Assembly (NCBI GenBank): GCA_001786395.1
Contig: MFWN01000024.1
Span: 27,697 to 73,493 of the forward strand
Direction: 5' to 3'
Source of the DNA: Candidatus Pacearchaeota archaeon RBG_13_36_9
GTDB lineage: Archaea; Nanobdellota; Nanobdellia; Pacearchaeales; GW2011-AR1
Length of the DNA stretch: 45,797 bases
Shown here: piece by piece, positions 12,404-29,963 of the stretch
How the letters are laid out: each line of letters starts with the position of its first letter
Numbering within the stretch: the first letter of the stretch is position 1
Notes under the pieces: model-generated
The model's input: the letters and a program-made list of their open reading frames with translations, nothing else
What the model was told of the DNA's origin: nothing
Database searches by the model: none
Made by a program: the position numbers and the translations under genes

Positions 12404-12535
12404 AAAAAATGTAAAAGAAGGATTATTTATTTAATTTTAAAAGAAGGATAAAAATTCGGCGGGATGAGAAATTTTTTTATAATTTTATCCCGTGTTTAGA
12501 ATTAATAATTTATCCCTTTGTTTTCATTATTTACT

Positions 12536-12997: not shown

Positions 12998-12999
12998 AA

Positions 13000-14031: not shown

Positions 14032-14032
14032 G

Positions 14033-14654: not shown

Positions 14655-15323
14655 ATGAAAATAAAATCTCTTCCTTTGGAAGACCGACCCAGAGAAAAGC
14701 TGATTAAGCAGGGGGCAGAAAATCTGACGAATTCTGAACTTTTGGCGATAATCTTGAGAGTTGGGAATAGGGGGGAGAACGTTTTAGATTTATCAAACAA
14801 ACTTTTTAATAAATATGATATTCGGTCTCTTTCCAGGGTTGAAATAAGCAAGCTGAGAAAGGAAATTGGAATAGGGGATGCTAAAGCATGCCAGATTGCT
14901 GCATGTTTTGAGTTGGGGAGGAGACTGGCTGCGTTTAAGAAAGACGGACATATTATAAGGGACACAAAAGATATAGCTAAAATTTTTCTCCCTGAAATGG
15001 GTGCTCTAAAAAAAGAGCATTTTAAAGGGGTTTATCTTAATTCAAGAAAAAGGATAATCAAAGAAGAGACAATTTTTATAGGCAGTTTAAACGAATCAGT
15101 TATTCATCCTAGAGAGATTTTCAGAATAGCTCTGGACGAAAATGCTGCTGCTTTAATCTTGCTCCATAACCACCCTTCTGGAGACCCCACACCAAGTGAG
15201 TTTGATATTAAAGTTACCAAAGAATTAGTGAAAGCAGGAGATATTTTGGGAATTAAAGTACTTGACCATATTATTTTAGGAGAGAATAAGTATCTAAGCT
15301 TTAAAGAGGAGCGGTTGATTTGA
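14655..15323 (+). CDS. radC: RadC-like JAB/MPN-domain protein
   Basis: The N-terminus reads NSELLAIILRVGNRGENVLDLSNKLF, and the JAMM motif reads LLHNHPSGDPTPSEFDIKVTKEL. Confidence 0.85.
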   Translation: MKIKSLPLEDRPREKLIKQGAENLTNSELLAIILRVGNRGENVLDLSNKLFNKYDIRSLSRVEISKLRKEIGIGDAKACQIAACFELGRRLAAFKKDGHIIRDTKDIAKIFLPEMGALKKEHFKGVYLNSRKRIIKEETIFIGSLNESVIHPREIFRIALDENAAALILLHNHPSGDPTPSEFDIKVTKELVKAGDILGIKVLDHIILGENKYLSFKEERLI

Positions 15324-16034: not shown

Positions 16035-16394
16035 TTACTTTTCTATCATCTTTTTCACTTTTTCAATCAGATCTTCTTTTGTAAATGGCTTTGTTATATA
16101 ATCTGCAATTCCAGCTTCCTTTAACTCTTCAACTCTCTCTGACGAAACCGGGATTGCGCTCAAGAATGCAAATTTTGCTTTTACCCCCATGTTTTTTAGC
16201 TTTGCAAAAATATCCCAGCCAGACATATCCGGAAGCATGATATCAAGCAGAATAACATCAAAGCCCTTTTTTATTTGTTTTATCCCTTCTTTTCCAGAAT
16301 AGGCTGTTTCTGTTTCAAACCCCGCGTTTGTCAATATTAATTTAACCGCTTCTGCTGTATCTTTATTATCCTCTATATAAAGTATTTTTTTCAT
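16035..16394 (-). CDS. Stand-alone CheY-like receiver (119 aa)
   Basis: It has the acidic pocket IEDNKD, the phospho-acceptor in LLDIMLPDMSG, and the conserved KPF lysine. It is about 75% identical by eye to 25606..25965. Confidence 0.9.
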   Translation of the reverse strand: MKKILYIEDNKDTAEAVKLILTNAGFETETAYSGKEGIKQIKKGFDVILLDIMLPDMSGWDIFAKLKNMGVKAKFAFLSAIPVSSERVEELKEAGIADYITKPFTKEDLIEKVKKMIEK

Positions 16395-16395
16395 A

Positions 16396-17190
16396 TTACT
16401 TTTTTAGCTCTTTTATCTCTTTTTTTAGCTCGCTCATTTTTACTTCTCTGCCAATCATCAGTTTGTTTAGCTTTTCAATTTCTTTTTCTACCTGCTTTTT
16501 TTCAGTTACATCTCGGAATATGCCAATTGTTGAGATAAATTTTCCGTTTGTTATTTTTGGAGAAATATTTCCTTCTACAAATATCTCTTTTTTATTTTTT
16601 GAAATAAAAATTGTATTTACATTTTCTAAGTGTTCTCCTGCGCAGACTTTCTTAAATAAATCCATGCAGTGCGTTTTTTGGTCGCTTTTTAGAATATTCA
16701 ATAAGCTGAGGCTTTTAATGTCCTCTTCTGAATAGCCCATTATTTCTTTCCATTTTTTGTTTACATAAATAAAATTGCAGTCTTTATCTACACTTTGTAT
16801 CAGGTCATTTGCATTATCCAAAATTTCTTTATATTCTTTTTCTGTATATTTTATTCTTTTGTTTATTTCATTTGCAAGCCCTGCAAATTCATTGTTTTGG
16901 CTTAGGTAAACTTCCTCATTTCTTTCAGAGACTGCTGTTTTAATTTTTTCAAGAGGCTTCATAATTGATAGAGAAACAATCAAACCTGTTGTTATTATTA
17001 AGATAAATGAGCTAACAAGAAAGAAAACAATTGAAAGTGAATTTATTTTTAGATTGGATAAGTTAGCTTCTGAACTTATTACTTTTGCAGTTATATTCCC
17101 GTTTGCATAAATAAATAGAAAATATCCACTAAGAGAGACTATTAGAAATATTGTAAATAAACCTAAAAAAATTTTAGATATTATCTTCAT
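16396..17190 (-). CDS. Membrane-anchored TM-TM-HAMP-like-PAS sensor protein with no kinase domain
   Basis: It has two N-terminal TM helices, a HAMP-like linker (IMKPLEKIKTAV...EFAGLANEINK), one PAS domain, and a C-terminal coiled coil MIGREVKMSELKKEIKELKK. Confidence 0.8.
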   Translation of the reverse strand: MKIISKIFLGLFTIFLIVSLSGYFLFIYANGNITAKVISSEANLSNLKINSLSIVFFLVSSFILIITTGLIVSLSIMKPLEKIKTAVSERNEEVYLSQNNEFAGLANEINKRIKYTEKEYKEILDNANDLIQSVDKDCNFIYVNKKWKEIMGYSEEDIKSLSLLNILKSDQKTHCMDLFKKVCAGEHLENVNTIFISKNKKEIFVEGNISPKITNGKFISTIGIFRDVTEKKQVEKEIEKLNKLMIGREVKMSELKKEIKELKK

Positions 17191-17387
17191 TTTTCCTCTT
17201 TTTATCTGAATAAGAAGGGGGCTCTTAAATATCTCACGGCTCTTTTTGGATAACCTTCTTAAATTGTTGGATAAAAATAATTCTTTTTGTAGCTTTTTAT
17301 AAAAGTTCTTAGAATTCTTTCTTATGATCTATAAAATATATAGCTAAAGCTTTTTATAAGAATTTGGTTGTATATTCCGCCCGGCTT

Positions 17388-17957
17388 TTAATTTTTCATT
17401 CTTTTTTTTACTATCTCGTGAATTCTTAATTTTATCTTTAGTTTTCCTATTATCTTTTTTAGGACTAAAATTATAAATGTTAGAAGTATTAAGCCCCCAA
17501 TTATCAATAAAATTATAATTATTTGCCCAGAGGTTTTACTGTCTTTTTTTATTATTTCAAATGAGTCTTTTCCTTCGGCTTCTTCTTTATTATTTACAAC
17601 AATCTGGACATCCAGTTCATAATTTCCTTCAGGGGCATTTTCTGGAATTTTTATATTGCCCACAAAAGAAGCTTGTGTTTCTATTGCAAGTGTTTCTGAT
17701 TTCGAAGCAAGGATGTTTTTTTGTGAGTCCAGAATATTATAATTAAGAGTTATGTCCATTCTTTGTTGTCCTGCAAGGTTCATTATTTTTGTTGTGAACC
17801 ATAGCTCGCCTCCAGCTTGGATGTTTTTGTGCGTATCTGCAATCTGAACCTCAAGATTGAATGGATTTTCCTGAGCTGCCGCTAAGGATAAAAGCAGGAG
17901 GCCTAAAACCAGGATTTCAATAAATAAGGTCTTGTTTTTTTCTTGTTTTGATTTCAT
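17388..17957 (-). CDS. Secreted beta-sandwich (CARDB/DUF11-like) protein with a C-terminal TM anchor and basic cytoplasmic tail
   Basis: The parts are a signal peptide (LVLGLLLLSLAAAQE), a ~110-aa domain (LEVQIADTHKNIQAGGELWFTTKIMNL..ITLNYNILDSQKN..GNYELDVQIV), the TM IIIILLIIGGLILLTFIILVL, and the tail KKIIGKLKIKLRIHEIVKKRMKN. It is a paralog of 24533..25090. Confidence 0.75.
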   Translation of the reverse strand: MKSKQEKNKTLFIEILVLGLLLLSLAAAQENPFNLEVQIADTHKNIQAGGELWFTTKIMNLAGQQRMDITLNYNILDSQKNILASKSETLAIETQASFVGNIKIPENAPEGNYELDVQIVVNNKEEAEGKDSFEIIKKDSKTSGQIIIILLIIGGLILLTFIILVLKKIIGKLKIKLRIHEIVKKRMKN

Positions 17958-18438
17958 CTTCCTCTTTTTCTACTTTATCAAAAAAATTGAATATTTTATT
18001 TAATAGCTCTTCGCCTTTTGTTGAAGGGCTGAAAGCTATAACTCTGGCATTATTCTCGGAAGCGTAATCTGCAATTTCTTTTACAAAAGCAGCTACTTTA
18101 TTTTCATCATTGTATATTAAAAGAGTGGAAAGTGCATCAATTATTAAGAATTTTTCCCCTTTTATCTCTTTTATAAAACTAGATATTGCGTAACTTAATT
18201 TTTCTAAATCCCTTGGAGAAATGTGAAGAACCTCCTCCTTTTGCTTTTCAGAAGTTACACAGTCTATAAAAAATATTTTTTCAGTTTTTATCTTATTTTT
18301 CTTTAGTGTTTCTTCTATGCTTTTTTGGGTTTTATTTAAAGAAACGTAAATGCCTGTGCAGTTTTGCATAGAACTTACTATCTTGTTTATTTTTTTCTGC
18401 AGTTTTTCTACAGGAGTTATTATTAGTAATGAAGACAT
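17917..18438 (-). CDS. P-loop-less KaiC/RecA-like (DUF835-like) protein, cassette A
   Basis: It is colinear with the KaiC-like protein 8586..9305 but lacks Walker A and the EE pair (GIYVSLNKTQKS). The Walker-B-like strand KFLIIDALSTLL is retained. It is about 65% identical to 25092..25571 and overlaps the next gene by 41 nt. Confidence 0.6.
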   Translation of the reverse strand: MSSLLIITPVEKLQKKINKIVSSMQNCTGIYVSLNKTQKSIEETLKKNKIKTEKIFFIDCVTSEKQKEEVLHISPRDLEKLSYAISSFIKEIKGEKFLIIDALSTLLIYNDENKVAAFVKEIADYASENNARVIAFSPSTKGEELLNKIFNFFDKVEKEEDEIKTRKKQDLIY

Positions 18439-18469
18439 TTTATAAGAGTATATTTGAGAGTATATAAAT

Positions 18470-18829
18470 TTACTTTAAAATTTTTTTAACTCTTTCTACC
18501 AAATCTTTTTTTGTAAAAGGCTTTGTTATGTAATCTGAAATTCCCACTTTCTTAAACTCTTTCATTCGTTCGGTAGATATTGGAATAACGCTAAGAAAAG
18601 CATATTTAGAATCATATTTTTTGCTGCTTAATGTCTTAAAAATATCCCATCCAGACATGTCAGGCAACATTACGTCCAATAAAACAAGGTCAAATTGCTT
18701 CTTGTGTGTTTTTTCAAGCCCGTCTGCTCCACAAAAACTTATCTCTACTTCATAGCCTGCATCCTCCAGCATCTGCTTTACTGCTTCTGCAGTATCTCTA
18801 TGGTCTTCTACATAAAGTATTTTTTTCAT
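18470..18829 (-). CDS. Stand-alone CheY-like receiver (119 aa)
   Basis: VEDHRD, LLDVMLPDMSG and KPF motifs are present. It shares an ATGA overlap with the upstream kinase. Confidence 0.9.
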   Translation of the reverse strand: MKKILYVEDHRDTAEAVKQMLEDAGYEVEISFCGADGLEKTHKKQFDLVLLDVMLPDMSGWDIFKTLSSKKYDSKYAFLSVIPISTERMKEFKKVGISDYITKPFTKKDLVERVKKILK

Positions 18830-20625
18830 TTTTTAACCTCCTCTTTATATCTGATTGGCAATGTGAAATAAAAAGTAGAGCCTTTTCCTAATTCACTCTT
18901 TAAGTTTATTTTTCCTCCTAATAATTCAACCAGCTGTTTAGTTATTGCAAGCCCTAAGCCAGTTCCTCCAACTTCGCTTTTTAAAGGAGTATAAATCTGA
19001 TAAAATTTCTCAAAAAGTTTAGATATTTTATCTTCTGGAATCCCGATGCCTGTATCCGTAACCTCCACTAAAACACTGTCATCCTGCTTTATTGCTTTTA
19101 TTTTGACATAGCCTTCTTCTGTGAACTTAATGGCATTATCAATTAAATTATTCAGTATTTCTGTTAATCTTATACTATCTGTGCTCATGTTTATTGGCTT
19201 GTCTATCTCAACGATTAATTTTATATTTTTCTTATCTGACAATATCTTCAAGTCATTTACAATAGAGCTAATGCAATTTTCTAAATCTATTTTAGAAATA
19301 TTCAATTCAAATTTATTGGATTGAATTCTTGCAATCTCCAAGATATTATCTACTAGAAACCTTAATTGATTGCTGTTTCTTCTTAATGCGTTTAGATTAT
19401 TAATATTCTTTTCAGAAAGTTTCGTCTTTATTTCTTCCAATAATTCCAGGTTTGCATATATTGCTGTCAGGGGAGTTTTCAATTCATGGGATACTATATT
19501 CATAAAATCTGTCTTGGCTATATCTAGCTCTTTTAATTGTTCTACTTGCTTTTTTATTTTTTCTTCTGCCTCTTTTCTTTGTGTGATATCGTGATATACA
19601 ACATAAACACCAGTTTGTTTTTTAGATTCATCGTAGACTGAACCATATGAAGCAGAAATCCATTTTGTTTCTTTATTTTTTGTAAGGATTCTAAACTCAC
19701 TAGTCGAAGTTTTTAAATCCCTCTTTGAAATACATTCGTTCCATTTAGCCGTTATCTTCTTATTATCATCAGGATTTATATAAATCATGAGTCGATTATC
19801 ATTTGGCTTAAAGTCCATAATCTCAGACAGGGTGTATCCTGTAAGTCTTTCAATGGCAGAATTAGCGTAAACCAGATGATGAGCCATATCATAAGATAAA
19901 AGCACATCAGATATATTATCAGCAATCATTTTAAGTTTTTCTTCACTCTTTTCCAAATCCTTTTCTGCTCTCTTCTGTGCTGTAATATCTCTAACAGTTG
20001 CCTGCAAATAAATTCTTCCTTCTTCTTCAACTCTGCTTAATAAAACCGTTGCAGGAAAATCTCCGTCTCCATATCTCATATGAGTCCATTCAAAAAAACT
20101 ACTTCCTTCTTTCATTGCTTTTTCAATCATTTTCTTTGCCTTGATTGAAGATAATTGCCCATCTGGCTGCTTTTCAGGAGATAGATCCACTGGTCCTAGA
20201 GAAATAAATTCTTTTTCATCTTTTACATTAAATATTTTAATCGCTGAATCATTTCCAGAAGTAAATTTCCAGTTTGGAGGTTCTAAAGTCATAATTGCAT
20301 CTTTTGAAAAAGTAAATAGCACTTTGTATCTTTCATCTGTTTCTTCCCTTCTTTTTGCTACATGCTCTCTTTTTCCTACTATTTCTTCTCTTCCGGTTGC
20401 TACTGTTTCTCTTTTTCCTACTATTTCTTCTCTTTCTAATGCTATACCTTCTCTGTTCTCTCCTTTTTTTATTCTCTCTCTTTTTCCTACTATTTCTTCT
20501 CTTCCGGTTGCTACATGCTCTCTTTTTCCTACTATTTCTTCCCTTCTTTTTGCTACATGCTCTCTTTTTCCTACTATTTCTTCTCTTCCGGTTGCACTCA
20601 ACTTTTTTCTAATTTTCTCCATCAT
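18826..20625 (-). CDS. Cytoplasmic PAS-PAS histidine kinase with an N-terminal charged 14-aa tandem repeat
   Basis: It has the H-box DFMNIVSHELKTPLTAI, the HATPase N and G boxes (NLIDNAIKF, DTGIGIP, GGTGLGLAI), and two PAS domains. No TM segment is present. Confidence 0.9.
   Translation of the reverse strand: MMEKIRKKLSATGREEIVGKREHVAKRREEIVGKREHVATGREEIVGKRERIKKGENREGIALEREEIVGKRETVATGREEIVGKREHVAKRREETDERYKVLFTFSKDAIMTLEPPNWKFTSGNDSAIKIFNVKDEKEFISLGPVDLSPEKQPDGQLSSIKAKKMIEKAMKEGSSFFEWTHMRYGDGDFPATVLLSRVEEEGRIYLQATVRDITAQKRAEKDLEKSEEKLKMIADNISDVLLSYDMAHHLVYANSAIERLTGYTLSEIMDFKPNDNRLMIYINPDDNKKITAKWNECISKRDLKTSTSEFRILTKNKETKWISASYGSVYDESKKQTGVYVVYHDITQRKEAEEKIKKQVEQLKELDIAKTDFMNIVSHELKTPLTAIYANLELLEEIKTKLSEKNINNLNALRRNSNQLRFLVDNILEIARIQSNKFELNISKIDLENCISSIVNDLKILSDKKNIKLIVEIDKPINMSTDSIRLTEILNNLIDNAIKFTEEGYVKIKAIKQDDSVLVEVTDTGIGIPEDKISKLFEKFYQIYTPLKSEVGGTGLGLAITKQLVELLGGKINLKSELGKGSTFYFTLPIRYKEEVKK
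20341..20592 (-). repeat. In-frame 42-bp tandem repeat (5 full copies plus a partial one) encoding REEIVGKREHVA[KT][RG]
   Basis: The core ttttcctactatttcttc recurs on the + strand at 42-nt spacing. One unit carries a 27-nt insertion (RIKKGENREGIAL). Confidence 0.85.
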
Positions 20626-20693
20626 AATCTCCTTTTAAAATTTTGAATCTCAAACCCCCCTTCTTTTATTCAAATAAAAAGCATTTAAGTATT

Positions 20694-20831
20694 TTATTTA
20701 TTATAATCTTCTTCTTTTTTTCCTACGTCCGCGCCAGATATTTTTAATTTGGATGCCGTATCACTATCTGTTGCCTTAGAATTTTTCAATAATAACTTCA
20801 AAGTCTCTTTTTCGCTCTTAGCAAGATTCAT
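20694..20831 (-). pseudogene. Remnant of an Lrp/AsnC-type regulator gene (45 codons)
   Basis: MNLAKSEKETLKLLLKNSKATDSDTASKLKISGADVGKKEEDYNK* matches the first ~33 aa of 29225..29779 (MNLTKNEKKVLKFLLENARVSDSLIAEKLKISSQAVGK..), then diverges and stops. It sits in the equivalent position upstream of the cassette-A kinase. Confidence 0.6.
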
Positions 20832-20998
20832 GCTTCCTCTTTTAGGCTTACTTTATGAATTTAATGTGCATTATTTATTTATATATTTAAGGTTATATGT
20901 CTAAACCTTTTATCTAAATTTAGTTCAAGATTTAAACCTTAAACTTATATTGTTAATAATATTGGAGATAATATCATAAAAAAGGTTATAAACAATCA

Positions 20999-21016
20999 AG
21001 AAACCTTTTGGTTTCT
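20999..21016. promoter_or_regulatory. Inverted repeat AGAAACC-tttt-GGTTTCT between a TATA-like element (~20986-20992) and the wHTH gene
   Basis: The 7-bp arms are perfect and lie ~40 nt upstream of ATG 21058. Confidence 0.35.
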
Positions 21017-21057
21017 GGCTGTCAAAATGCCGCATTAAAGTGGTCAAGCATTTCAAC

Positions 21058-21258
21058 ATGAAAGAGGAAAATATAATTAAGATTCTTGAAGGGAAGAATA
21101 TTGGACCCAATATAACCGAGTTAGTCAATCTTTCTAAGTCCTCTCGTTCAGCTGTCAGAACTGCTATTGCAAAATTAGAAGGGGCTAATAAAATTTCTTT
21201 TAGAAATATTGGGCTGGCTAAAGTTTATTTTTTAGATCAAAAAAAGGTGAAGCAATGA
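21058..21258 (+). CDS. Small winged-helix DNA-binding protein (66 aa), translationally coupled to the surface-protein gene
   Basis: ITELVNLSKSSRSAVRTAIAKLEGANKISFRNIGLAKVYFL gives the HTH plus wing. It shares an ATGA overlap with 21255. The track begins it at GTG 21040. Confidence 0.65.
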   Translation: MKEENIIKILEGKNIGPNITELVNLSKSSRSAVRTAIAKLEGANKISFRNIGLAKVYFLDQKKVKQ

Positions 21259-23330
21259 AAAAGAAATATTTATTTGCATTATTTTTTAATGTTATCTTAT
21301 TTAGTTTAGATTATGTTTCTGCTGGCTTTGTAGATAATGCTGCAACATATTGGATGCATAATAAATCTGATTCTCAATTTAGTGCTTATCGTCAGTTAAG
21401 AAATGTAAGTACAGAACTTGCAATGATTACCCCTGCTAGTTTAAGTACAAATAATCTTGGAATATTTTGTTGGGGAGATAATTGGACTTCTCCTAATTTT
21501 ACCAGCATCACTTCAGTCAGCGGGATTTGGAATTTCTCCTTGAATTATACTAGGAGTACTACTGGTTCAAGAACCCCTGTTCTTTATTTATTTGCAAGAA
21601 TCTTCAAGTTAAACTCCACTGGAAGATTTGAGATAGCAAATTCAACTCAGTCCGCAAATGTTGGCGGACAAACAACGAATACTGCTGTTTTGTGGGGCTA
21701 TAATCTGACAGATAGTTCTTTAACAAATCTTTCTGTTGGAGAGAGAGCGGGAGTTCAATTTTGTATTAATGTTACAACTGCCCGAAATAGAAACGCAAAT
21801 ATCTACTGGGAAAACTCGACTCGTTCTTTTGTGGTAATCCCCCTCCAGTATTTTGACGCCTCTTCTCCAAATTTAAATATAACTTATCCTCTTAATGCCA
21901 CTTATAATATTAGTGTTTCTTCATTAAATTACACAGTCTCTGATGCAAATTTACAAGCTTGCTGGTATAATTTGAATGGAACAATTAATATAACAATTAC
22001 TTGCGGAACAAATTTGACTGGATTGACTTCAACAGAAGGAAGCAATATTTGGAGAGTTTATGCTAACGATACAGCAGGAAATATAAACTCTGGAAATGTT
22101 TTTTTTACTGTTGACACGACACCTCCGCAATGGAGTAATATTCAGCAGAATATTCCAAGCCTTTATTCTGCTAACCTTTCTTATTTCAACATTGCCTGGA
22201 CAGACAGTGGTGGCATAGGAATTGTTCTTTTTGAAGGCAATTTTTCAGGAGTTCCTGTAAATTATACAATGTATTTAATTTCTGGAAATACTTACGGGTT
22301 TAATGCAACACTTCCTGCCGGAACTTTTTACTGGAAATCCCATGCAAACGACTTCTATGGAAATCTTAATTCAAGCCCAACTCAAATGTTCATAATCAAT
22401 AAAGCAAGCCAGACAGCAACTCTTAATATAAATGAAAGTTCCCCTATAGTTTACGGAACTTGGGTAAATGTGACTTGCAATGGAGAATTATTTAGAAATG
22501 ATGCCGATTTTAGTTCTGAAATAGGACATTCTATTCTATTAAACGCAGGAAATTATAATTATTCATGCAGATTATATGAAAATGAAAACTACTCGTATGA
22601 TGATGACAATTTAACATTTAAGGTTAATCAGGCAGCTGGAGACATTCGCTTATCGCCTCCTCAGCAGAATCTTAGTGGCGGCGGCAGTTGTTTGTACAAT
22701 TGGAGTTGCACAGAATGGAATAAATGCAGTCAGGAAGGAAAACAAACTAGAACTTGCTGGAATCTTGGTACGTGCCCTAATAGGTATAATGCTCCTAAAA
22801 CAGAGCAAAATTGTGCATATCTTGCCTCAGAAAAAGCTTTATTTGATATCGTTTTAACAGTAATAAACCCACAAATAATTCTTGGAGAGAACTTAACTGC
22901 CAAAATTTCTCTGGTCAATTATGGAAATAAAACAAATTTAAATGTCACTTTAAATTACACGATAACTGATTCAAATAATAAAACTATTTTAAGGGAAAAA
23001 GAAATAGTGCCAGTAGAAATCCAAAATGAATTTATTAAGGAATTTGTTTTACCATCTCAAATAGCTCTTGGAGAATATAAATTGTTTGTTGAAATAAATT
23101 ATGAAGGTCAGGAAAAAGAAGCTGTTTCACAAGGTTCATTCAAAATTCTTCCAAAAAAACAAGGATTTTTCCCTTCTCTTATAGGAAAGGCGATTTGGAC
23201 TGACTCCGACAAAAGAAACTATTTGATAACAGGCACTTCACTTTTAGTAATTATTATGATCGTTGTTTATATTTTAATTAAAAAATCTATAAGAGAAAAT
23301 AAACAGAGTATAAAATATAAAAATGGATAA
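21255..23330 (+). CDS. Sequon-rich surface protein (691 aa) ending in a Cys-rich knot + beta-sandwich + TM anchor
   Basis: It has a signal peptide, Ig-like modules of the family seen in the giant proteins (ITYPLNATYNISVSSLNYTVSDANLQACWYNLNG..IWRVYANDTAGNINS), the Cys motif at 22678-22815, the beta-sandwich at ~22840-23150, and the TM LLVIIMIVVYILI. Confidence 0.85.
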   Translation: MKKKYLFALFFNVILFSLDYVSAGFVDNAATYWMHNKSDSQFSAYRQLRNVSTELAMITPASLSTNNLGIFCWGDNWTSPNFTSITSVSGIWNFSLNYTRSTTGSRTPVLYLFARIFKLNSTGRFEIANSTQSANVGGQTTNTAVLWGYNLTDSSLTNLSVGERAGVQFCINVTTARNRNANIYWENSTRSFVVIPLQYFDASSPNLNITYPLNATYNISVSSLNYTVSDANLQACWYNLNGTINITITCGTNLTGLTSTEGSNIWRVYANDTAGNINSGNVFFTVDTTPPQWSNIQQNIPSLYSANLSYFNIAWTDSGGIGIVLFEGNFSGVPVNYTMYLISGNTYGFNATLPAGTFYWKSHANDFYGNLNSSPTQMFIINKASQTATLNINESSPIVYGTWVNVTCNGELFRNDADFSSEIGHSILLNAGNYNYSCRLYENENYSYDDDNLTFKVNQAAGDIRLSPPQQNLSGGGSCLYNWSCTEWNKCSQEGKQTRTCWNLGTCPNRYNAPKTEQNCAYLASEKALFDIVLTVINPQIILGENLTAKISLVNYGNKTNLNVTLNYTITDSNNKTILREKEIVPVEIQNEFIKEFVLPSQIALGEYKLFVEINYEGQEKEAVSQGSFKILPKKQGFFPSLIGKAIWTDSDKRNYLITGTSLLVIIMIVVYILIKKSIRENKQSIKYKNG

Positions 23331-23841
23331 AGCTTTAATATTAGTAAAAAAGTACGAAGATTATCTTAATAGGATATTTGAAATAATAAAGGAGCGTGGA
23401 AAAAAAGCATGCTATGTTACATTTAACAAAACTCCTGATTTTATCTTGGAATCTGCAGCAAAACACAATATCCAAAAAGATAAGCTTTATTTTATTGACG
23501 GTATAACTGCAAGGATTAAAAGTTCTGCTAAAATTAAGAATTCTGTTCAGATAAGCTATTTTGATAATCTTTCAAAGATAAGCAACAACATCAGAAAGAT
23601 AGTAAACAAAGGTTATCCTTTAGTTATTTTTGATTCACTTTCAAACCTCCTCATTTATCCTTCTATAAATGACTCCTCTATTGTTAAATCCCTCAAGGTT
23701 TTATTTGAATCCCTTGATAAAGTGAATGGAGAAGTTGCTTTTGTTTGTTATGAGAAGGATATTGGGAATTATTCATTAGACAAAACATTATCGTTATTCA
23801 ATAAAATTATAAAGCCCTCCAGCGAATTATTTGGAACATAA
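23323..23841 (+). CDS. P-loop-less KaiC/RecA-like (DUF835-like) protein, cassette C (divergent copy)
   Basis: KACYVTFNKTPDF..KLYFIDGIT..YPLVIFDSLSNLLIYP..GEVAFVCYEKD is colinear with 17917..18438 and 25092..25571. It overlaps the upstream surface-protein gene by 8 nt. Confidence 0.5.
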   Translation: MDKALILVKKYEDYLNRIFEIIKERGKKACYVTFNKTPDFILESAAKHNIQKDKLYFIDGITARIKSSAKIKNSVQISYFDNLSKISNNIRKIVNKGYPLVIFDSLSNLLIYPSINDSSIVKSLKVLFESLDKVNGEVAFVCYEKDIGNYSLDKTLSLFNKIIKPSSELFGT

Positions 23842-23934
23842 AAAAGATTTAAAGATTGAAAATCTTTAACTCATTTCAGTTTTAAACAACTGAAGATTTA
23901 AAAATAAGCAAGACTTAAATAAACAGAGAAAAAT

Positions 23935-23956
23935 ACAGAAAACTATAGTTTTCTGT
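23935..23956. promoter_or_regulatory. Perfect 22-bp palindrome ACAGAAAACTATAGTTTTCTGT
   Basis: Read directly from the sequence. It lies in the 208-bp gap, ~95 nt upstream of the receiver gene 24050, and is preceded by two small hairpins (23851-23867, 23876-23893). Confidence 0.45.
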
Positions 23957-24049
23957 CTGATTAAACCAAAGAAAAGCAAAGCTTTTCTGGTCCCCAAAAA
24001 TCCATAAAAGATTTTTGCGGTTTCAAACAAAACAAACAAAAAATTTGAC

Positions 24050-24406
24050 ATGGGAAAAAAAATAATGATTGTGGATGATGAGCCTGATATAAGGATGCCT
24101 ATAGAAGAGGTTCTTGAAAGAAATGGGTATAAAGTCGTGACTGCAGTTAGTGCTGATGATTGCCTGAAGAAAGTTCAGGCAGGGGAAAGGCCCGACTTAA
24201 TTTTAATGGATATTGTGATGCCTGGAACTCCTGTAAGAAAAATAATTCCAAAACTTGGCAAAATTAAGATAGCTTATTTATCTGTTGTCAGAATTTCTGA
24301 AGCTGAAAGAAAAGATTTAATGAAAAACAAGAATATTGTTGATATTATACAAAAGCCATTTGAGCTTAGCGAATTAATAAAAAGAGTTAAGAAGCTAGCT
24401 GGATAA
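24050..24406 (+). CDS. Stand-alone CheY-like receiver (118 aa), divergent type
   Basis: VDDEPD, ILMDIVMPG and QKPF motifs are present. Confidence 0.85.
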   Translation: MGKKIMIVDDEPDIRMPIEEVLERNGYKVVTAVSADDCLKKVQAGERPDLILMDIVMPGTPVRKIIPKLGKIKIAYLSVVRISEAERKDLMKNKNIVDIIQKPFELSELIKRVKKLAG

Positions 24407-24532
24407 ACTTTTGTTCCGGTTCGTTTGCACTGAGAACTTGTATTTTAGTATCTAAAAAATGTTTTAATTTAATGTAAATTATACCAAAAAATATTTCTTA
24501 CGGGATAGGGGTTCACTTCATATTAGTCTGTA

Positions 24533-25090
24533 TTATTTCTCATAAAGTTTCCTTTTTTCGATTATCTTCCCAACCCGAATCTTTATTTGCAATTTTTCAA
24601 ATAGAACTCTCAGTTTTTTATATGAGAAAATCAAAATTATCAAAACCAATATAAAAACTGCCGCAATAGCAATTAGGTAATACATCCTGTTGTCAATTTG
24701 TTTTTCTACAACATTGAAAGATGTCTCTGCGACAACCTCTTTATCATCACCATAATCTACTTTTGCATTAATTTTGTATTTTCCAGGCTCAGTATCCTCA
24801 GGAATATTAAAAGTCTTTACAAAACTGGCTTGTGTTTGAACAGCCATTGTTTCTTTATTTTCTGCTATTATGCTGTTGTTATCATCACTAATCCAGTAAT
24901 TTAAAGAAATATCCGCTTTCTCGATATTTTCAAGATTAGCTATCTTTATGGTGAACCAAATATCATTTCCTGCCAAGACTTCTTTATAATTGTTATGAAC
25001 ACTTACTTCTAAGTTAGAAGCACCTTGAACAAAAACTATTTCCATTAAAAAAATAAAAGTAACTGTTGAATATAAAAATAGTTTATTCAT
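24533..25090 (-). CDS. Secreted beta-sandwich protein with a C-terminal TM anchor and basic tail (paralog of 17388..17957)
   Basis: The signal peptide is followed by LEVSVHNNYKEVLAGNDIWFTIKIANL..ISLNYWISDDNNS..GKYKINAKVDY, the TM YYLIAIAAVFILVLIILIF, and the tail YKKLRVLFEKLQIKIRVGKIIEKRKLYEK. Confidence 0.75.
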   Translation of the reverse strand: MNKLFLYSTVTFIFLMEIVFVQGASNLEVSVHNNYKEVLAGNDIWFTIKIANLENIEKADISLNYWISDDNNSIIAENKETMAVQTQASFVKTFNIPEDTEPGKYKINAKVDYGDDKEVVAETSFNVVEKQIDNRMYYLIAIAAVFILVLIILIFSYKKLRVLFEKLQIKIRVGKIIEKRKLYEK

Positions 25091-25091
25091 G

Positions 25092-25571
25092 TTATTTTCC
25101 TTCTACTTTATCAAAGAAATTGAATATTTTATTTAATAATTCTTCTCCTTTTGTTTTCGGACTTAAAGCCACTATCTGCACATCCTTCTCAGAGGCATAT
25201 TCTGTCATTTTTTTAACAAATTTAGCTACGCTGTCTTCATTATTAAAAATTAAGAGGGTTGATAAAGCATCTATAATAAGAAATTTTTCTCCTTTTATCC
25301 CTTCCATAAATGCACCAACAGCAGAATCCAGCAAGTCTAATCTGTCTGGAGCAATATGCAAAACATCATCTCTTGTCTTTTTTGATGTAACACAGTCTAT
25401 GAACAATATTTTTTTAGTGTTTATCTTGTTTTTGGTTAAGCTTTCTTCTATGCTTTTTTGAGTTTTGTTTAAGGAGATATAAATTCCAGTTAACTTTTGT
25501 ACTGTCCTGATTTTTTCAATTATCCTGGCTTGCAGTTTTTCAACAGAAGTTATTATTAAAGTGGAGCTCAT
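25092..25571 (-). CDS. P-loop-less KaiC/RecA-like (DUF835-like) protein, cassette B
   Basis: It has the same architecture as 17917..18438 (GIYISLNKTQKS, KFLIIDALSTLL). Its stop is 1 nt from the start of 24533..25090. Confidence 0.6.
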   Translation of the reverse strand: MSSTLIITSVEKLQARIIEKIRTVQKLTGIYISLNKTQKSIEESLTKNKINTKKILFIDCVTSKKTRDDVLHIAPDRLDLLDSAVGAFMEGIKGEKFLIIDALSTLLIFNNEDSVAKFVKKMTEYASEKDVQIVALSPKTKGEELLNKIFNFFDKVEGK

Positions 25572-25605
25572 TTAATATTTCAAATAAATTGTTACTTAAA
25601 TACTT

Positions 25606-25965
25606 TTATCCAATCATCTTTTTTATCTTTTCTATCAAATCTTCTTTTGTAAAAGGCTTTGTTATGTAATCTGAAATTCCTGCTCTTTTTAGTTCTTCCA
25701 TTCTTTCTGATGATACTGGTATTGCGCTTAAAAAGGCGAACTTTGATTTTACTCCTTTTTTGCTTAAATTCGCAAAGATGTCCCAGCCAGACATATCCGG
25801 GAGCATGATATCCAGCAAGATAAGGTCAAAATTCTCCTTTTCAATTATTTTTAGCCCGTCTTTCCCGCAGGAAGCTATTTGAGAGTCGTAGCCTGCAACA
25901 TCTAAAATCATTTTTACAGCTTCTGCAGTGTCTTTATTGTCTTCGATATATAGGATTTTCTTCAT
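25606..25965 (-). CDS. Stand-alone CheY-like receiver (119 aa)
   Basis: IEDNKD, LLDIMLPDMSG and KPF motifs are present. It lies 2 nt downstream of the kinase. Confidence 0.9.
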   Translation of the reverse strand: MKKILYIEDNKDTAEAVKMILDVAGYDSQIASCGKDGLKIIEKENFDLILLDIMLPDMSGWDIFANLSKKGVKSKFAFLSAIPVSSERMEELKRAGISDYITKPFTKEDLIEKIKKMIG

Positions 25966-25967
25966 GT

Positions 25968-27932
25968 TTAAGACTTTCCTCCTTTCAATTGTTTTTTCTT
26001 TATAATTTCTTTTATTTGTGAATCAAATTTTGCAAAGGGGTCGGGGTAATTTCTGTTTTCAATTTTTTTGCTGCTTATATCTTCTGCTTTGCGTTTAATT
26101 GGAAGAGTGAAAGTAAAAGTTGTCCCTTTTCCTTGGATGCTTTTAACTTTTATTGTCCCTCCATGCGCTTCGACTAATTGTTTGGTTATTGATAATCCAA
26201 GGCCAGTTCCCCCATATCTTCTTGAAACCGAAGCATCTACTTGATAGAACTTTTGAAATAAATTTTTTATTTTTTCTTCTGGAATTCCTAATCCCGTATC
26301 TGAAATATCTACTTCAATAAATTCTCCACTTTGCTTTGCTTTGATAGTTATACTTCCTTGGTCTGTAAATTTTATTGCATTAGTAATAAGGTTATTTAAG
26401 ATTTCTTTTATTCTTGAATCGTCAACTTCTATTATCTGGAGTTTTTCTATTTTTGTAATTATTTTGAGGCCTTTTTGATTTGCAAGGATTTGTAATTCAT
26501 CAACTACATTTTTAATTAATTTTTCTAAATCTACTCTTACTCTTGTCAGTTCAAATTTTCCAGAATCCATTCTGGCTATTTCCAGAATATTTGAAATAAG
26601 CATTTTCAGGTTATTTGCGTTTCTTCTTATTGCTTCAAGGCTGTTTAACTCTTCTTTTGTCAAGTTCTTTTTCATGTCATCTAAAACATCCAGATGGGCA
26701 ATTATTGCAGTAAGGGGGGTTTTTAATTCATGAGATACTACATTTAAGAATTCGGATTTGGATTTGTCAAGCTCTTTTAACTCTTCATTTGCTTTTGATA
26801 TGTCTTCCATCATGTTTAAAATAGCTATTTTTGTGTTGCTGATGTCTTTTGTTTTTTTATTTACTTCTCTTTCCAGAGCCTCTCCTTTTTCTTTTTCAGA
26901 TTCTAGGAGCTTTTGCTGGTATTTTTCCAAGTTTTGTGCCATTAGTTCAATCGAGCTTATTAGTTCTTTAATCTCCCCTTTTGCATTTATGCCTATCTTT
27001 TTATTTAAGTTTCCTTTTCCAATTTCTTTTGTGATACTTACTAGTTCAGAAAGTGGGCGGGTAATGTTTTTAGATAAAATTCTGTTGAATATAAAAATAG
27101 TTAAAATAAAAAGGAGGCCCGTGGACCAGATTAAAATCAGAAAAATATTTAGGGTGTTTATTCCTTCTTTGTAAATTTCTCTTGGGAGTGTTGTTTCAAC
27201 AACAACTGCTGGATTTTCTTCTATATCTTTTATTAGGAAATATGTCTGTATCTCTGTCTTATTTTTTTCGAGATATTCTATGTTAGATTTTAGCGCCTCT
27301 TTTGCTTCGGGATTTTTGAATTGCTCGTAGGAAATCATATTTATCTTAACCCAAACTAAACTTTCCAGTTCTTTTATTTTCTCTTCATTTAGCTTGTACC
27401 CTATGGTTAAAAATCCTGCGGAGGGGCCTTCCTTATTGCTTCTTAATATGGGTTGGGAAGAAATAATCAAAAAATAATTTTCTAGAACTTTTAACCCAGT
27501 TACATTTGTTGTTTCAAATTTTTCATAATTATTGGATAGGTATTCTTTTATGCCTTTTACTTCAGATTCCGCTAGTTCTGCGCGGTTTATAAAATAAAAT
27601 ATGTCCCCCGATGTATTTGTAAAAGACATAAATTCAATATTTAGATTAGCCAGTGTTTCATCGTTTAAATTTGAGACTATGTAACCAGGATATTCATTTT
27701 GTATGAATAAATAAGTGTCATCCCAGTCTGCCCAATCTACAGAACTAGACCTCACTATTTCAAATTCTTTGTTAATAGCTTCTTGGACTCTTTTGCAGTT
27801 AATATTTGCATTTTCATTTTCTAATTTCGAAAAGCTTTTGTTTATTGTAAAGTAGGAGAACAAGGAAATTATAATTAACATGATGAGAGTTATGGAAATG
27901 TTTATTGCAATCATCTTGTTTTGGAGGTTCAT
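25968..27932 (-). CDS. Membrane sensor histidine kinase: TM-CHASE4-TM-HAMP-coiled coil-HisKA-HATPase
   Basis: CHASE4 hallmarks are VDWADWDDTYLFIQ and SSQPILRSNKEGPSAGFLTIGYKL. HAMP reads ITRPLSELVSITKEIGKGNL. The H-box is FLNVVSHELKTPLTAI, and the N/G boxes are NLITNAIKF, DTGLGIP and GGTGLGLSI. Confidence 0.9.
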   Translation of the reverse strand: MNLQNKMIAINISITLIMLIIISLFSYFTINKSFSKLENENANINCKRVQEAINKEFEIVRSSSVDWADWDDTYLFIQNEYPGYIVSNLNDETLANLNIEFMSFTNTSGDIFYFINRAELAESEVKGIKEYLSNNYEKFETTNVTGLKVLENYFLIISSQPILRSNKEGPSAGFLTIGYKLNEEKIKELESLVWVKINMISYEQFKNPEAKEALKSNIEYLEKNKTEIQTYFLIKDIEENPAVVVETTLPREIYKEGINTLNIFLILIWSTGLLFILTIFIFNRILSKNITRPLSELVSITKEIGKGNLNKKIGINAKGEIKELISSIELMAQNLEKYQQKLLESEKEKGEALEREVNKKTKDISNTKIAILNMMEDISKANEELKELDKSKSEFLNVVSHELKTPLTAIIAHLDVLDDMKKNLTKEELNSLEAIRRNANNLKMLISNILEIARMDSGKFELTRVRVDLEKLIKNVVDELQILANQKGLKIITKIEKLQIIEVDDSRIKEILNNLITNAIKFTDQGSITIKAKQSGEFIEVDISDTGLGIPEEKIKNLFQKFYQVDASVSRRYGGTGLGLSITKQLVEAHGGTIKVKSIQGKGTTFTFTLPIKRKAEDISSKKIENRNYPDPFAKFDSQIKEIIKKKQLKGGKS

Positions 27933-27933
27933 C

Positions 27934-29259
27934 TTAATCTATTTGGTATCTCTTGGGCTGGCCTCGTTGATTTAGCAATTCATTTATTTCTTTTTTTAAT
28001 TCAACCATTTTAAGCTCTCTTCCTACTGCAAACTGGTTAAATTTTTCAAGCTCTTCTGCCCTTTCTTTTAACTCTTCTTCTGCTTTCTTGCGCTCGGTGA
28101 TATCCCAGAAAATGCCTAATATGCCAATAACGTTGCCTTTTTCATCCTTGACAGGGGTTTTTATCGTATGGACAAATACCTTTTTCTCATCTTGTATATA
28201 CCCCTCTTCTATATCTTCCATCTTGTCTGTTTCCATAAGTCTCTTATCATCTGCTCTATATTTTTCAGCTAATTCTTTAGGAAAAAAATCAAAATCTGTT
28301 TTTCCGGTAATTTCTTTTGGTTTAATTTTCAGGTCTTTAGCATAATTTTCATTGCAAGATATATAAACTAAGTTGCTATCCTTTAAGAAAATTTTCTGCG
28401 GAATATTTTCAACCAATAATCTGTATTTTTCTTCGCTTTCTTTTAATTCTTTTTCTGCTTTCTTTCTTTCTGTTATATCTCTAAAGAAGCCCAACATTAT
28501 CTTTTTACCTCTAATCATCACCTGGCTGCTGGTTATATCACAATAAATTACTTTTCCATCTTTTCTTAATACTGGAAGATTTTCTGCAGTTGTTATCTTT
28601 CCTTCCCGCTGTTCTTTAAATTTCTCTATCACTAAGGGTAGGTCTTTTTTTGGATGGATTCCCGTAATGCCCAGTTCCAGGATCTCTTTTTCAGAATATT
28701 TAAGCATTTCCTGGATTTTTTTATTTGCAGAGATAAAGTTCTTCTTCTCTGCATCTGCCACAATAATTCCTTCTGCAGCCTCATCAAATATCACCTTGTA
28801 TTTTTCTTCGCTTTCTTTTAATTCTTTTTCTGCTTTTTTTCTTTCTGTTATATCTTCTCCGGAGCTTATTGTTCCGGTTATTTTGCCTTTATCATCTTTT
28901 AACAGGGTGCTATGCCAAGAGATTATTTTTTCTCTTCCTTTTTTTGTCAGGACCAGATTTTCAAAAAATTCTGTGTAGTTTAATTCTCCTTTCATTAATC
29001 TATTAAACACTACGTGGACTTCTTTTCTTTTTTCTTTTGGAATGCAAGCATCAAACCAATTCTTTCCAATTAGCTCTTGTTTTTTATATCCAAGAAGTTC
29101 GCAGCCTTTTTTATTTATTAAAACAATTGTTCCGTTTGAATCAAGAAAAACGATTAAAGAATTAATCAAGTTTAATAATTCTTCAGCTGATTTATTGTAA
29201 ATACCTTCCATCTTCCCTCTTTTTTTATAATCTATTTTTGAAATTTTCAATTTCTGCAA
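27934..29259 (-). CDS. Soluble triple-PAS sensor protein with no kinase domain
   Basis: It has three PAS units, each followed by DITERKKAE(K/E)ELKE.. linkers, and the C-terminal coiled coil VGRELKMVELKKEINELL. Its stop is 1 nt from the kinase start. An alternative start is M17 (nt 29211). Confidence 0.85.
   Translation of the reverse strand: MQKLKISKIDYKKRGKMEGIYNKSAEELLNLINSLIVFLDSNGTIVLINKKGCELLGYKKQELIGKNWFDACIPKEKRKEVHVVFNRLMKGELNYTEFFENLVLTKKGREKIISWHSTLLKDDKGKITGTISSGEDITERKKAEKELKESEEKYKVIFDEAAEGIIVADAEKKNFISANKKIQEMLKYSEKEILELGITGIHPKKDLPLVIEKFKEQREGKITTAENLPVLRKDGKVIYCDITSSQVMIRGKKIMLGFFRDITERKKAEKELKESEEKYRLLVENIPQKIFLKDSNLVYISCNENYAKDLKIKPKEITGKTDFDFFPKELAEKYRADDKRLMETDKMEDIEEGYIQDEKKVFVHTIKTPVKDEKGNVIGILGIFWDITERKKAEEELKERAEELEKFNQFAVGRELKMVELKKEINELLNQRGQPKRYQID
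28422..28480. repeat. Copy 1 of a near-identical ~58-bp repeat (PAS linker coding sequence)
   Basis: tgtatttttcttcgctttcttttaattctttttctgctttctttctttctgttatatct differs from 28798-28856 by essentially one base. Confidence 0.8.
28798..28856. repeat. Copy 2 of the ~58-bp PAS-linker repeat
   Basis: The offset of 376 nt equals one PAS unit. Confidence 0.8.
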
Positions 29260-29779
29260 AAACCGGCTTCGGATTTTCTGTTTTTAGATTATTAATTATC
29301 TCATTGAACAACTGTATTGGGGAATTTTTTATTAAAGAGTTGTGAGAGAAAGTGAAAAGTTCTTTGTTTTCAATAAAATTATGCAGTTCTTTCTTTTTTT
29401 GGGGAGAGTGGAAAAATGAATCCATCTCATCTACATCCCGAAACCCATAGAGCATGGCGTGAGTTAAACTTCCGTGAGGAAGCCTGAACACTTGGATAAT
29501 GTTCGGAGTTTCTAAGAGCTTTTTTTCTGTTTCAAGCTCTCCTTTATCTAATCCTTCTTGCGTTAACTTAGCTAATGCAACTGCAAATGTCTTAATGCCC
29601 AGTTTAGAATAATTAAGATTTACGGTATAAGAGTCAATCAAGTTTTTCTCTAGTTTTCTTCTTATTTTTCCAACTGCCTGGCTTGAAATTTTTAGCTTTT
29701 CTGCTATCAGGGAATCAGAGACTCTCGCATTTTCCAATAAAAACTTTAGAACTTTTTTTTCGTTTTTTGTTAGGTTCAT
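29225..29779 (-). CDS. Lrp/AsnC-family transcription regulator (184 aa)
   Basis: The N-terminal HTH is EKKVLKFLLENARVSDSLIAEKLKISSQAVGKIRRKLEKN and is followed by a RAM-like alpha/beta domain. It is the first gene of cassette B and is divergent from 29964. Confidence 0.7.
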   Translation of the reverse strand: MNLTKNEKKVLKFLLENARVSDSLIAEKLKISSQAVGKIRRKLEKNLIDSYTVNLNYSKLGIKTFAVALAKLTQEGLDKGELETEKKLLETPNIIQVFRLPHGSLTHAMLYGFRDVDEMDSFFHSPQKKKELHNFIENKELFTFSHNSLIKNSPIQLFNEIINNLKTENPKPVFAEIENFKNRL

Positions 29780-29871: not shown

Positions 29872-29901
29872 ATAAGTTTAAAGTTTCAACATTAAACTTA
29901 T
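29872..29901. promoter_or_regulatory. Inverted repeat ATAAGTTTAA-n10-TTAAACTTAT in the divergent promoter region
   Basis: The 10-bp arms are perfect. It lies 63 nt upstream of ATG 29964 and ~95 nt upstream of the Lrp ATG. Confidence 0.4.
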
Positions 29902-29963
29902 ATCTTTAACTTAGCTTTCTGTCATCGTTAGAGTTAGGACTTTAAAAAAAAGAGGCAGTAAAA

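Follow-up and report, generated by a model that had tools for sequence, protein, structure and literature searches.

Three versions of a signaling gene set

The DNA analyzed here is a 45,797-nucleotide (45.8-kb) stretch, hereafter the window, from Candidatus Pacearchaeota archaeon RBG_13_36_9, and the protein encoded at 17917–18438 is 100% identical to a protein of this archaeon. Within 14 kb of the window, a gene set comprising a sensor histidine kinase, a stand-alone receiver (REC), a KaiC-like protein lacking the P-loop and a single-pass transmembrane (TM) protein with a beta-sandwich ectodomain occurs in three versions, cassettes A, B and C (Table 1). The KaiC-like proteins are termed iKaiC below, after the name used in the literature for DUF835 (Pfam PF05763). 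All open reading frames (ORFs) named in a preliminary description of the locus sit at the coordinates and on the strands given there, and its view that one gene set is present three times agrees with the identity comparison, in which the cassettes are diverged paralogues.

Pfam bears out the domain calls made earlier for the kinases, the triple-PAS protein and the Lrp-type regulator. The four receivers are 118–119-aa proteins consisting of a full-length Response_reg domain only and, as described, have no output domain. For the protein at 16396–17190, previously labeled TM-HAMP-PAS, the TM segments and the PAS domain stand, whereas HAMP was not detected by Pfam. Both kinases carry the H-box SHELKTPL and a HATPase_c domain. 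In an alignment of REC_A with Escherichia coli CheY, the acidic pair, the phospho-accepting Asp, a Ser at the Thr87 position and Lys109 are present, and the equivalents of the acidic pair, Asp57, Ser/Thr87 and Lys109 are kept in nearly all 23 REC sequences. The hallmarks of a two-component pair (HisKA with its H-box, HATPase_c and the receiver phosphorylation residues) are thus all in place, and phosphotransfer is predicted from them. The N-terminus of kinase A contains about six 14-aa repeats (REEIVGKREHVATG), coded by 42-nt tandem repeats at 20340–20595, which are absent from kinase B and the orthologs. Both PAS-only proteins, which have no kinase domain, share a C-terminal helix motif, GRE[VL]KMxELKKEIxEL (16396–16470 and 27934–28020); it may form a coiled coil by which these proteins dock onto the kinases.

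Identity between the iKaiC proteins is 66% for A and B, 33% for A and C, and 30% for B and C. REC_A and REC_B share 65% identity, the satellite receiver REC_S and REC_B 79%, and REC_C is about 38% identical to the others. The TM proteins of cassettes A and B are 36% identical, and the C-terminus of the 691-aa surface protein of cassette C matches both at 27–31%. At the DNA level, cassettes A and B are 64–82% similar across the REC and iKaiC genes. Hidden Markov models (HMMs) built from the window copies match these genes alone in the window. In the following, L-numbers denote comparison loci in other genomes and P-numbers denote homologous proteins. Proteins of other genomes reach 74% identity to copy A and 77% to copy B (the latter being P0110 of another Nanoarchaeota genome), against 66% between A and B. 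Since A and B are each nearer to foreign proteins than to one another, the multiplication is old and not a recent segmental duplication.

Table 1. Coordinates of the signaling cassettes and associated features in the window (aa, amino acids)
Feature	Position	Strand	Description
Satellite receiver REC_S	16035..16394	-	119 aa; REC HMM E 8e-63
Satellite membrane PAS-only protein	16396..17190	-	264 aa; PAS_9 residues 134-230, E 1.5e-12
Cassette A Ig-like single-pass membrane protein	17388..17957	-	189 aa; basic cytoplasmic helix; 41-nt overlap with iKaiC_A gene
Cassette A iKaiC	17917..18438	-	173 aa; P-loop-less RecA/KaiC fold; C-terminal DLIY tail
REC_A	18470..18829	-	119 aa; Response_reg residues 4-115, E 4.4e-24
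Cassette A sensor histidine kinase	18826..20625	-	599 aa; 14-aa repeats, PAS, PAS, HisKA, HATPase_c (Pfam)
Lrp remnant, cassette A	20694..20831	-	bases 20831..20718 encode 38 aa, soon followed by a stop
Palindromic element copy 1	20923..20950	-	4 mismatches to consensus; between cassettes A and C
Cassette C small winged-helix protein	21058..21258	+	66 aa from ATG; 4-nt overlap with next gene
Cassette C surface protein	21255..23330	+	691 aa; Cys-rich motif, beta-sandwich, TM helix; TM-module HMM E 3e-57
Cassette C iKaiC	23323..23841	+	172 aa; 8-nt overlap with surface-protein gene
REC_C	24050..24406	+	118 aa; Response_reg E 8.4e-17
Cassette B Ig-like single-pass membrane protein	24533..25090	-	185 aa; basic cytoplasmic helix; HMM E 6e-74; weak CARDB and MG2 matches (Pfam)
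Cassette B iKaiC	25092..25571	-	159 aa; short form without LIY tail
REC_B	25606..25965	-	119 aa; REC HMM E 1e-65
Cassette B sensor histidine kinase	25968..27932	-	654 aa; CHASE4, HAMP, HisKA, HATPase_c (Pfam)
Triple-PAS protein, cassette B	27934..29259	-	441 aa; three PAS (Pfam), no kinase domain
Lrp_B, Lrp/AsnC-type regulator	29225..29779	-	184 aa; first gene of cassette B; HTH_24 above cut-off (Pfam)
Palindromic element copy 2	29876..29903	-	ATATAAGTTTAATGTTGAAACTTTAAAC; arms TATAAGTTTAA / TTAAACTTATA; 1 mismatch to consensus
1387-aa surface protein	29964..34127	+	beta-helix/NosD, LamG, Cys-rich motif, beta-sandwich, TM; divergent from Lrp_B

The iKaiC proteins and their membrane partners

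The AlphaFold2 model of copy A iKaiC, computed from a 118-sequence alignment, is a single RecA-type alpha/beta domain (predicted local distance difference test score, pLDDT, 92.7; predicted template modeling score, pTM, 0.87). Its Foldseek matches include FlaH/ArlH (4yds, E 3.5e-7), PH0284 (2dr3, template modeling score 0.74), cyanobacterial KaiC (7s65), PH0186 and SSO2452, with E-values of 1e-7 to 1e-4 for FlaH, PH0284 and KaiC, in line with the RecA/KaiC fold proposed earlier for the 159–173-aa proteins. The loss of the P-loop is likewise borne out: no GxxxxGK[ST] occurs in the three copies, and in the model strand 1 (residues 3–8) and helix 1 (residues 10–23) are joined by only 1–2 residues, which indicates that the Walker A loop was deleted and not mutated. 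The motif SLNKTQKS, located after strand 2, lines up with INLEEPEG of the genuine KaiC of the window in hhalign, as had been claimed, at a probability below 1%; because this profile comparison is weak by itself, the fold assignment rests on the structure comparison. The position of the catalytic EE pair reads NK in 101 and 88 of 118 relatives, and the Walker-B Asp (D101) is retained in 113 of the 118, consistent with the preliminary description.

The most conserved iKaiC residues, N35, K/R36, D59, C60, D101, Y109 and N110, sit on the vestigial nucleotide-site face of the AlphaFold2 model, where strands 2, 3 and 4 have their C-terminal ends; this face may now serve as a binding surface. With the P-loop and the catalytic Glu pair lost, canonical ATP binding by iKaiC is not possible. 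An active KaiC/RadA-type ATPase (PF06745) was therefore rejected, the best score being 19.6 bits against a cut-off of 26.6; for comparison, the genuine KaiC of the window (8586–9305) scores 128 bits.

Regarding family membership, copy A passes the Pfam cut-offs of DUF835 (42.3 bits, cut-off 33.1), DUF7090 (30.1 bits) and DUF7504 (27.6 bits), copy B falls slightly under the cut-offs (DUF7090, 26.5 bits; DUF835, 25.1 bits), and copy C has no DUF835 match in Pfam, only the sub-threshold KaiC match. The earlier label DUF835-like therefore holds above cut-off for copy A, and copies B and C, which score below, are tied to it by 66% and 33% identity and a common profile. The family is large, with 2180 clusters at 50% identity (E ≤ 1e-3), 43 of them at E ≤ 1e-30, and 15 homologues of copy C were found at 52–94% identity. 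Long-form iKaiC proteins end in [DE][DE]L[IV]Y-COOH behind a charged linker in 20 of 23 cases (17917–17931 in the window; P0002–P0114). Similar ends (DDELIY, QELVY, EEGVY) are seen on some TM-protein tails (P0288; L003 8509–9108; L015 8477–9046). Tandem iKaiC-iKaiC proteins (P0156, 360 aa; P0200, 339 aa), which resemble the CI-CII double domain of KaiC and suggest self-association, were also observed, as were tandem iKaiC genes (L022 9095–10199).

The TM protein of cassette A was modeled by AlphaFold2 (pLDDT 89.5) as a signal/TM helix (residues 5–26), a beta-sandwich of 7–8 strands (residues 33–136) and a helix (residues 141–188) comprising the TM segment and a basic cytoplasmic extension. The structural matches are generic (CARDB 3idu, the fibronectin type III domain of RbmA and TRAP-beta sandwiches), and CARDB, MG2 and DUF4625 all remain under their Pfam cut-offs, so that the immunoglobulin (Ig)-like assignment holds at the fold level only. 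The ectodomain stretch ETVAIETQASFVG is nearly invariant across species. The cytoplasmic tail (peptide KKLRVLFEKLQIKIRVGKIIEKRK) keeps the pattern KSKxIIEKLRIKxKIxxIVKKK across species, which the tails of the giant surface proteins do not follow. A homology search returned at least 19 relatives, and the size of the family was judged from HMM matches in the fetched loci. The predicted archaeal MoxR/Ig-like "secretion system" (PMC5898192) was rejected as a home for the TM protein, as it has no KaiC component and consists of other families.

The beta-sandwich/TM module also anchors larger proteins. Besides the 691-aa protein of cassette C, the 1387-aa protein divergent from Lrp_B ends in such a module (TM-module HMM E 4e-57; 36% identity to the 691-aa protein over 278 aa), the fourth of the locus, so the system reaches position 34127. 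In both proteins the Cys-rich motif CxxxWxCxxWxxCxxxGxQxRxC... directly precedes the beta-sandwich anchor (22700–22830 and 33540–33660), and it is exchanged for Gly/Ser linkers in fusion proteins. Five such fusions (P0126, P0145, P0149, P0150 and P0243) consist of a large ectodomain of the disaggregatase-repeat/CBM96 or sortilin/BNR type, a Gly/Ser linker, the beta-sandwich, the TM helix and, behind a basic linker, an iKaiC domain at the C-terminus. At the P0145 and P0149 loci, a gene for a 61–65-aa winged helix-turn-helix (wHTH) protein, the fusion gene and a gene for a two-sandwich TM protein with a basic tail follow one another, without a kinase or receiver. Ten multi-domain proteins from the top 150 relatives were scanned, and none of them contained REC. 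Taken together with the catalogued REC-DUF835 proteins (Galperin, Makarova, Wolf and Koonin, 2018; PMC5847659), the ectodomain-TM-iKaiC fusions indicate that iKaiC is physically linked to both of its proposed partners. Several further giant surface proteins of the window, rich in N-glycosylation sites (46–6405 and 34403–41350), are without the sandwich-TM anchor.

Gene order and regulators in other genomes

Three homologues on long contigs have a matching gene order. A scan of one genome per species yielded 38 loci, which were screened with profiles from the window proteins and belong nearly all to Woesearchaeota, Pacearchaeota or Nanoarchaeota. Five contigs with a DPANN-type module (L010, L011, L021, L031 and L037) are filed as Methanosarcinales, Alphaproteobacteria, Eubacteriales or "bacterium" metagenome-assembled genomes (MAGs), probably owing to binning errors. 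The counts below refer to the 23 species-representative loci with a close iKaiC, with smaller denominators where sequence ran short. REC lies directly upstream of iKaiC in 18 of 22 loci, a kinase lies upstream in 13 of the 17 with sufficient sequence, and the sandwich-TM gene lies directly downstream of iKaiC in 20 of 23; 11 of 17 loci have REC, kinase and TM gene together. In most loci, the end of the iKaiC gene and the start of the TM gene overlap (typically by 4 nt) or lie no more than 2 nt apart, which suggests translational coupling. The spacing between the REC and iKaiC genes is 31–34 nt in cassettes A and B, and 208 nt, with the order reversed, in cassette C.

Cassette C has an ortholog of matching order in L045, composed of a small helix-turn-helix (HTH) gene, a gene for a 1530-aa surface protein with the same C-terminal module, an iKaiC gene (83% protein identity) and a REC gene (88%), and two further contigs carry one or two receivers behind an iKaiC of the cassette C type. 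The proposed linkage beyond a local duplication is thus upheld by the recurrence of the order kinase, REC, iKaiC, TM protein across species-level genomes and by this orthologous locus.

In at least 10 loci, the operon begins with an ortholog of Lrp_B (E 1e-55 to 1e-87), usually with a PAS-only gene behind it; a PAS-only gene occupies the position of the triple-PAS gene in L003, L009–L011 and L016. In the Protein Data Bank, Lrp_B matches LrpA (1i1g, E 3.5e-5) and AsnC (8q90, residues 7–121, E 6e-5); it has no match to Pfam AsnC_trans_reg and carries 60 extra C-terminal residues. The Lrp remnant reported for cassette A is genuine, with 58% identity to residues 1–38 of Lrp_B (tblastn). The Lrp gene is divergent from homologous beta-helix surface-protein genes in the window, L003 and L005. 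The 66-aa wHTH protein of cassette C resembles, by eye and without a score, the 61–68-aa ORFs before giant surface-protein genes in L003, L005, L043 and L044. Genes for winged-helix proteins of 61–90 aa precede a giant surface-protein gene in the window (21058–21258, followed by the gene starting at 21255), L003 (1812–2018), L005 (6902–7102), L043 (4448–4645) and L044 (744–929 and 10421–10693), with a short overlap between the two genes that measures 4 nt in the window, L003, L043 and L044; this appears to be a general DPANN arrangement.

The window has two divergent intergenic regions, one separating Lrp_B from the gene of the 1387-aa protein and the other separating the Lrp remnant from cassette C. 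Both contain a 28-nt palindromic element with the consensus ATATAAGTTTAAKGTTGAAACTTTAAAC; the copy upstream of cassette B has perfect 11-nt inverted arms around a 10-nt center. The window contains 3 matches against 0.04 expected, and 10 matches occur in 532 kb, with none in shuffled sequences. In constant orientation, the element lies 90–240 nt upstream of the Lrp-type gene in L005 (7160–7187), L010 (2752–2779), L018 (1481–1508) and L009 (2714–2741), and it is also found upstream of a second sandwich-TM gene in L007 (4337–4364). It is a candidate operator for the Lrp-type regulator or the small wHTH protein that would couple the module to the surface-protein genes. A weak copy with 6 mismatches (8179–8206, minus strand) lies between 7814–8128 (minus strand) and 8271–8579 (plus strand), before the genuine KaiC operon, which encodes two paralogous proteins of about 100 aa, KaiC (8586–9305) and a 384-aa protein without a Pfam match; this copy may reflect a regulon link or chance.

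Elsewhere in the window, an isoprenoid-type gene cluster within 10429–14566 encodes an FAD-dependent oxidoreductase (Pyr_redox_2/DAO), a UbiA prenyltransferase, a UPF0047 protein and a polyprenyl synthetase; behind these genes lie a 177-aa ORF (14033–14566) and a RadC-JAB gene (14655–15323).

A proposed output module and its relation to known systems

The gene set itself is confirmed, and its interpretation as a signaling system is supported as regards the fold and the conserved linkage. We favor, with a probability of roughly 0.55, a signaling output module that is conserved in DPANN archaea (Woesearchaeales/Pacearchaeales) and of which the window contains three versions that diverged long ago. 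In this module, a kinase would act through phosphorylated REC on a membrane-held iKaiC adaptor that is linked to surface proteins as well as to HTH regulators. The sensor histidine kinase, whose input domains vary (PAS, CHASE4 or dCache, with PAS-only helpers), would phosphorylate the adjacent stand-alone receiver, which would then bind or act on the non-catalytic, DUF835-like iKaiC. The latter would be held at the inner membrane face by the basic cytoplasmic helix of the co-translated single-pass protein, a tether that would be covalent in the fusions, and the Ig-like ectodomain of this partner would be the module that also anchors the neighboring giant surface proteins. The module would be wired to the Lrp-type regulator encoded by its first gene and to the small winged-helix proteins, with the palindrome in the promoter region shared with divergent surface-protein genes. 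The state of the complex may act on surface proteins with the shared anchor module, on HTH regulators, or on both, and the likely outcome would be control of the production or state of adhesin-like surface proteins.

From the gene order, the gene overlaps and the domain fusions, we infer a protein–protein output; the contacts of iKaiC with REC and with the TM tail, the direction of the signal, the binding of a regulator to the palindrome and the physiological output are likewise proposed. The sensor parts of the kinases vary (PAS-PAS, CHASE4-HAMP, dCache, and kinases of 1190–1626 aa), whereas REC and iKaiC stay 55–80% identical and the TM tail motif is kept. The combination of variable inputs with a constant REC/iKaiC/TM set favors the direction from kinase to REC to iKaiC.

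Several observations weigh against this proposal. Pairs of iKaiC and TM genes occur without a kinase or REC in L008, L024, L043 and L044, and the TM gene is lacking in L012 and L018, which means that the four genes are not an obligate unit. The existence of iKaiC-TM units without a phosphorelay also makes the reverse direction possible. Part of the basic character of the segment behind the TM helix would follow from the positive-inside rule in any case. Of about 7 informative loci, only 3 have the Lrp gene divergent from the gene of a giant surface protein, and the palindromic element is TATA-rich, so a shared core-promoter role is possible instead of a regulator site. Furthermore, the genomes compared are all uncultivated MAGs.

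That reverse direction underlies a tentative alternative, which we consider rather unlikely, namely an outside-in receptor in which the giant surface proteins, together with the Ig-like TM protein, act as sensors, for example of host contact, and iKaiC relays the signal inward to the receiver and kinase or to the small HTH regulators. The giant ectodomain-TM-iKaiC fusions are laid out like a receptor, the nearly invariant motif ETVAIETQASFVG suggests a specific extracellular partner, and units of iKaiC and TM protein, in some cases with a wHTH protein, exist without a kinase or REC. A KaiC protein upstream of a kinase is known from SasA/RpaA. However, the kinases possess extracellular or cytoplasmic sensor domains of their own (CHASE4, dCache, PAS), DUF835 is the output domain of the receiver in the catalogued fusions (PMC5847659), and variable kinase inputs combined with a constant REC/iKaiC/TM set suit an output role better.

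It is improbable that iKaiC and the TM protein form an accessory for the biogenesis or anchoring of surface proteins, independent of the adjoining two-component genes. While the kinase- and REC-free pairs in the four loci named above and the extra sandwich-TM paralogues clustered nearby in L007, L013 and L025 would fit such a role, REC lies directly upstream with short spacers in 18 of 22 loci, REC comes directly after iKaiC of the cassette C type in each of the three contigs inspected, REC-DUF835 fusions are known, and a P-loop-less protein is unable to supply energy for biogenesis. Even less probable is an assignment of the proteins as ArlH/FlaH-like accessories, with the module switching an archaellum or type IV pilus in the manner of CheY. 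FlaH (4yds) is the best match in the Protein Data Bank by both sequence and structure, weak NCBIfam FlaH/ArlH matches exist, many homologues are labeled "archaellum biogenesis ATPase FlaH" by JGI, and two archaellin genes (Flagellin_arch-type) lie behind the module in one Woesearchaeota genome (L002/L009 9939–12057). None of the remaining loci with Pfam gene listings showed such archaellin genes, and the NCBIfam score is 28.7 bits against a cut-off of 194, with the P-loop absent. Moreover, no ArlI/ArlJ-type domains were found in the three loci with Pfam listings (the other loci being screened with six custom profiles only), no archaellum families occur among the window proteins scanned, and the constant neighbor is an Ig-like TM protein. 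A mere local segmental duplication without conserved functional linkage, to which the presence of three copies within 14 kb and the DNA similarity of cassettes A and B might point, is refuted by identical gene order in more than 20 other species-level genomes, by the relatives of A and B elsewhere, each closer than A and B are mutually, and by the order kept in the cassette C ortholog. Anti-phage defense was also considered and rejected, as PADLOC gave no matches beyond generic REC and HTH similarity.

As a more speculative and doubtful extension, the pair of iKaiC and Ig-like TM protein may provide a transmembrane coupling of giant adhesin-like proteins of episymbiotic DPANN archaea to the phosphorelay, comparable to an archaeal integrin, working inside-out or outside-in. 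Inside-out, the way in which surface adhesins cluster or engage would depend on the phosphorylation state of the receiver; outside-in, the phosphorelay and the HTH regulators would be informed when adhesins engage a host cell. If true, such coupling would offer the first molecular handle on how DPANN archaea sense or regulate host attachment. For the output module that we favor, a receiver-only regulator with a fixed partner set (iKaiC, Ig-like membrane protein, Lrp-type regulator) opens the way to specific binding experiments on small soluble proteins. The module also places dead KaiC domains of the DUF835, DUF7090 and DUF7504 type in a context and ties a phosphorelay to giant surface proteins that are thought to mediate DPANN cell–cell contact.

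A survey of the literature on DUF835, DUF7090, DUF7504, iKaiC and DPANN two-component systems yielded only the 2018 census as relevant, in which REC-DUF835 and REC-PAS-PAS-DUF835 proteins are catalogued in Methanomicrobia and Thermoplasmata (PMC5847659); given these fusion response regulators, the preliminary statement that no such system had been described was too strong. In this census, bare receivers account for about 40% of archaeal response regulators, and most of them lie outside conserved neighborhoods, so that their function is not inferable; only four complete DPANN genomes were covered, with almost no two-component proteins (PMC5847659). Like the REC-DUF835 regulators, the proteins described here combine a receiver with an inactivated KaiC-like domain and a presumed protein–protein output, without a DNA-binding domain. 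Unlike them, REC and iKaiC are encoded by separate adjacent genes with a constant Ig-like membrane protein and Lrp-type partners, the lineage is DPANN, and the fusions in the DPANN set join iKaiC to giant surface proteins and not to REC. In the accessible literature we did not find the split operonic REC/iKaiC form, the Ig-like membrane protein that constantly accompanies it and has a conserved cytoplasmic helix, the iKaiC fusions to giant surface proteins, the Lrp and wHTH genes with the palindrome, or the wide conservation in DPANN.

Makarova, Galperin and Koonin are said to have proposed in 2017 that KaiC-like ATPases and their inactivated derivatives serve as archaeal signaling hubs or components. 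The occurrence of a RecA/KaiC-fold protein in signaling gene neighborhoods and the concept of a non-catalytic iKaiC adaptor are common to that proposal and the present system, whereas most hub members, including CirA of Haloferax volcanii (PMC13464002), keep Walker A and B, unlike the iKaiC proteins of the window. ArlH/FlaH (4YDS), the nearest structure and sequence match, is likewise a single RecA/KaiC domain of similar size, but its Walker A is intact and it binds ATP, as in the ATP/Mg complex 4YDS, whereas the iKaiC proteins have no P-loop. Cyanobacterial KaiC is a double-domain active ATPase and autokinase upstream of the SasA kinase. As in the KaiC-SasA-RpaA system, a KaiC-fold protein would communicate with a histidine kinase/response regulator pair here, but as a single dead domain that is membrane-tethered and most likely downstream of the receiver, and KaiA and KaiB are absent. 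DUF835 proteins of Thermococcales-type archaea have a membrane N-terminus and a C-terminal DUF835 domain, and thus resemble the present system in placing an iKaiC domain at the cytoplasmic membrane face. What is new here is therefore a variant of archaeal two-component signaling via an inactivated KaiC domain, a category that is itself already known.

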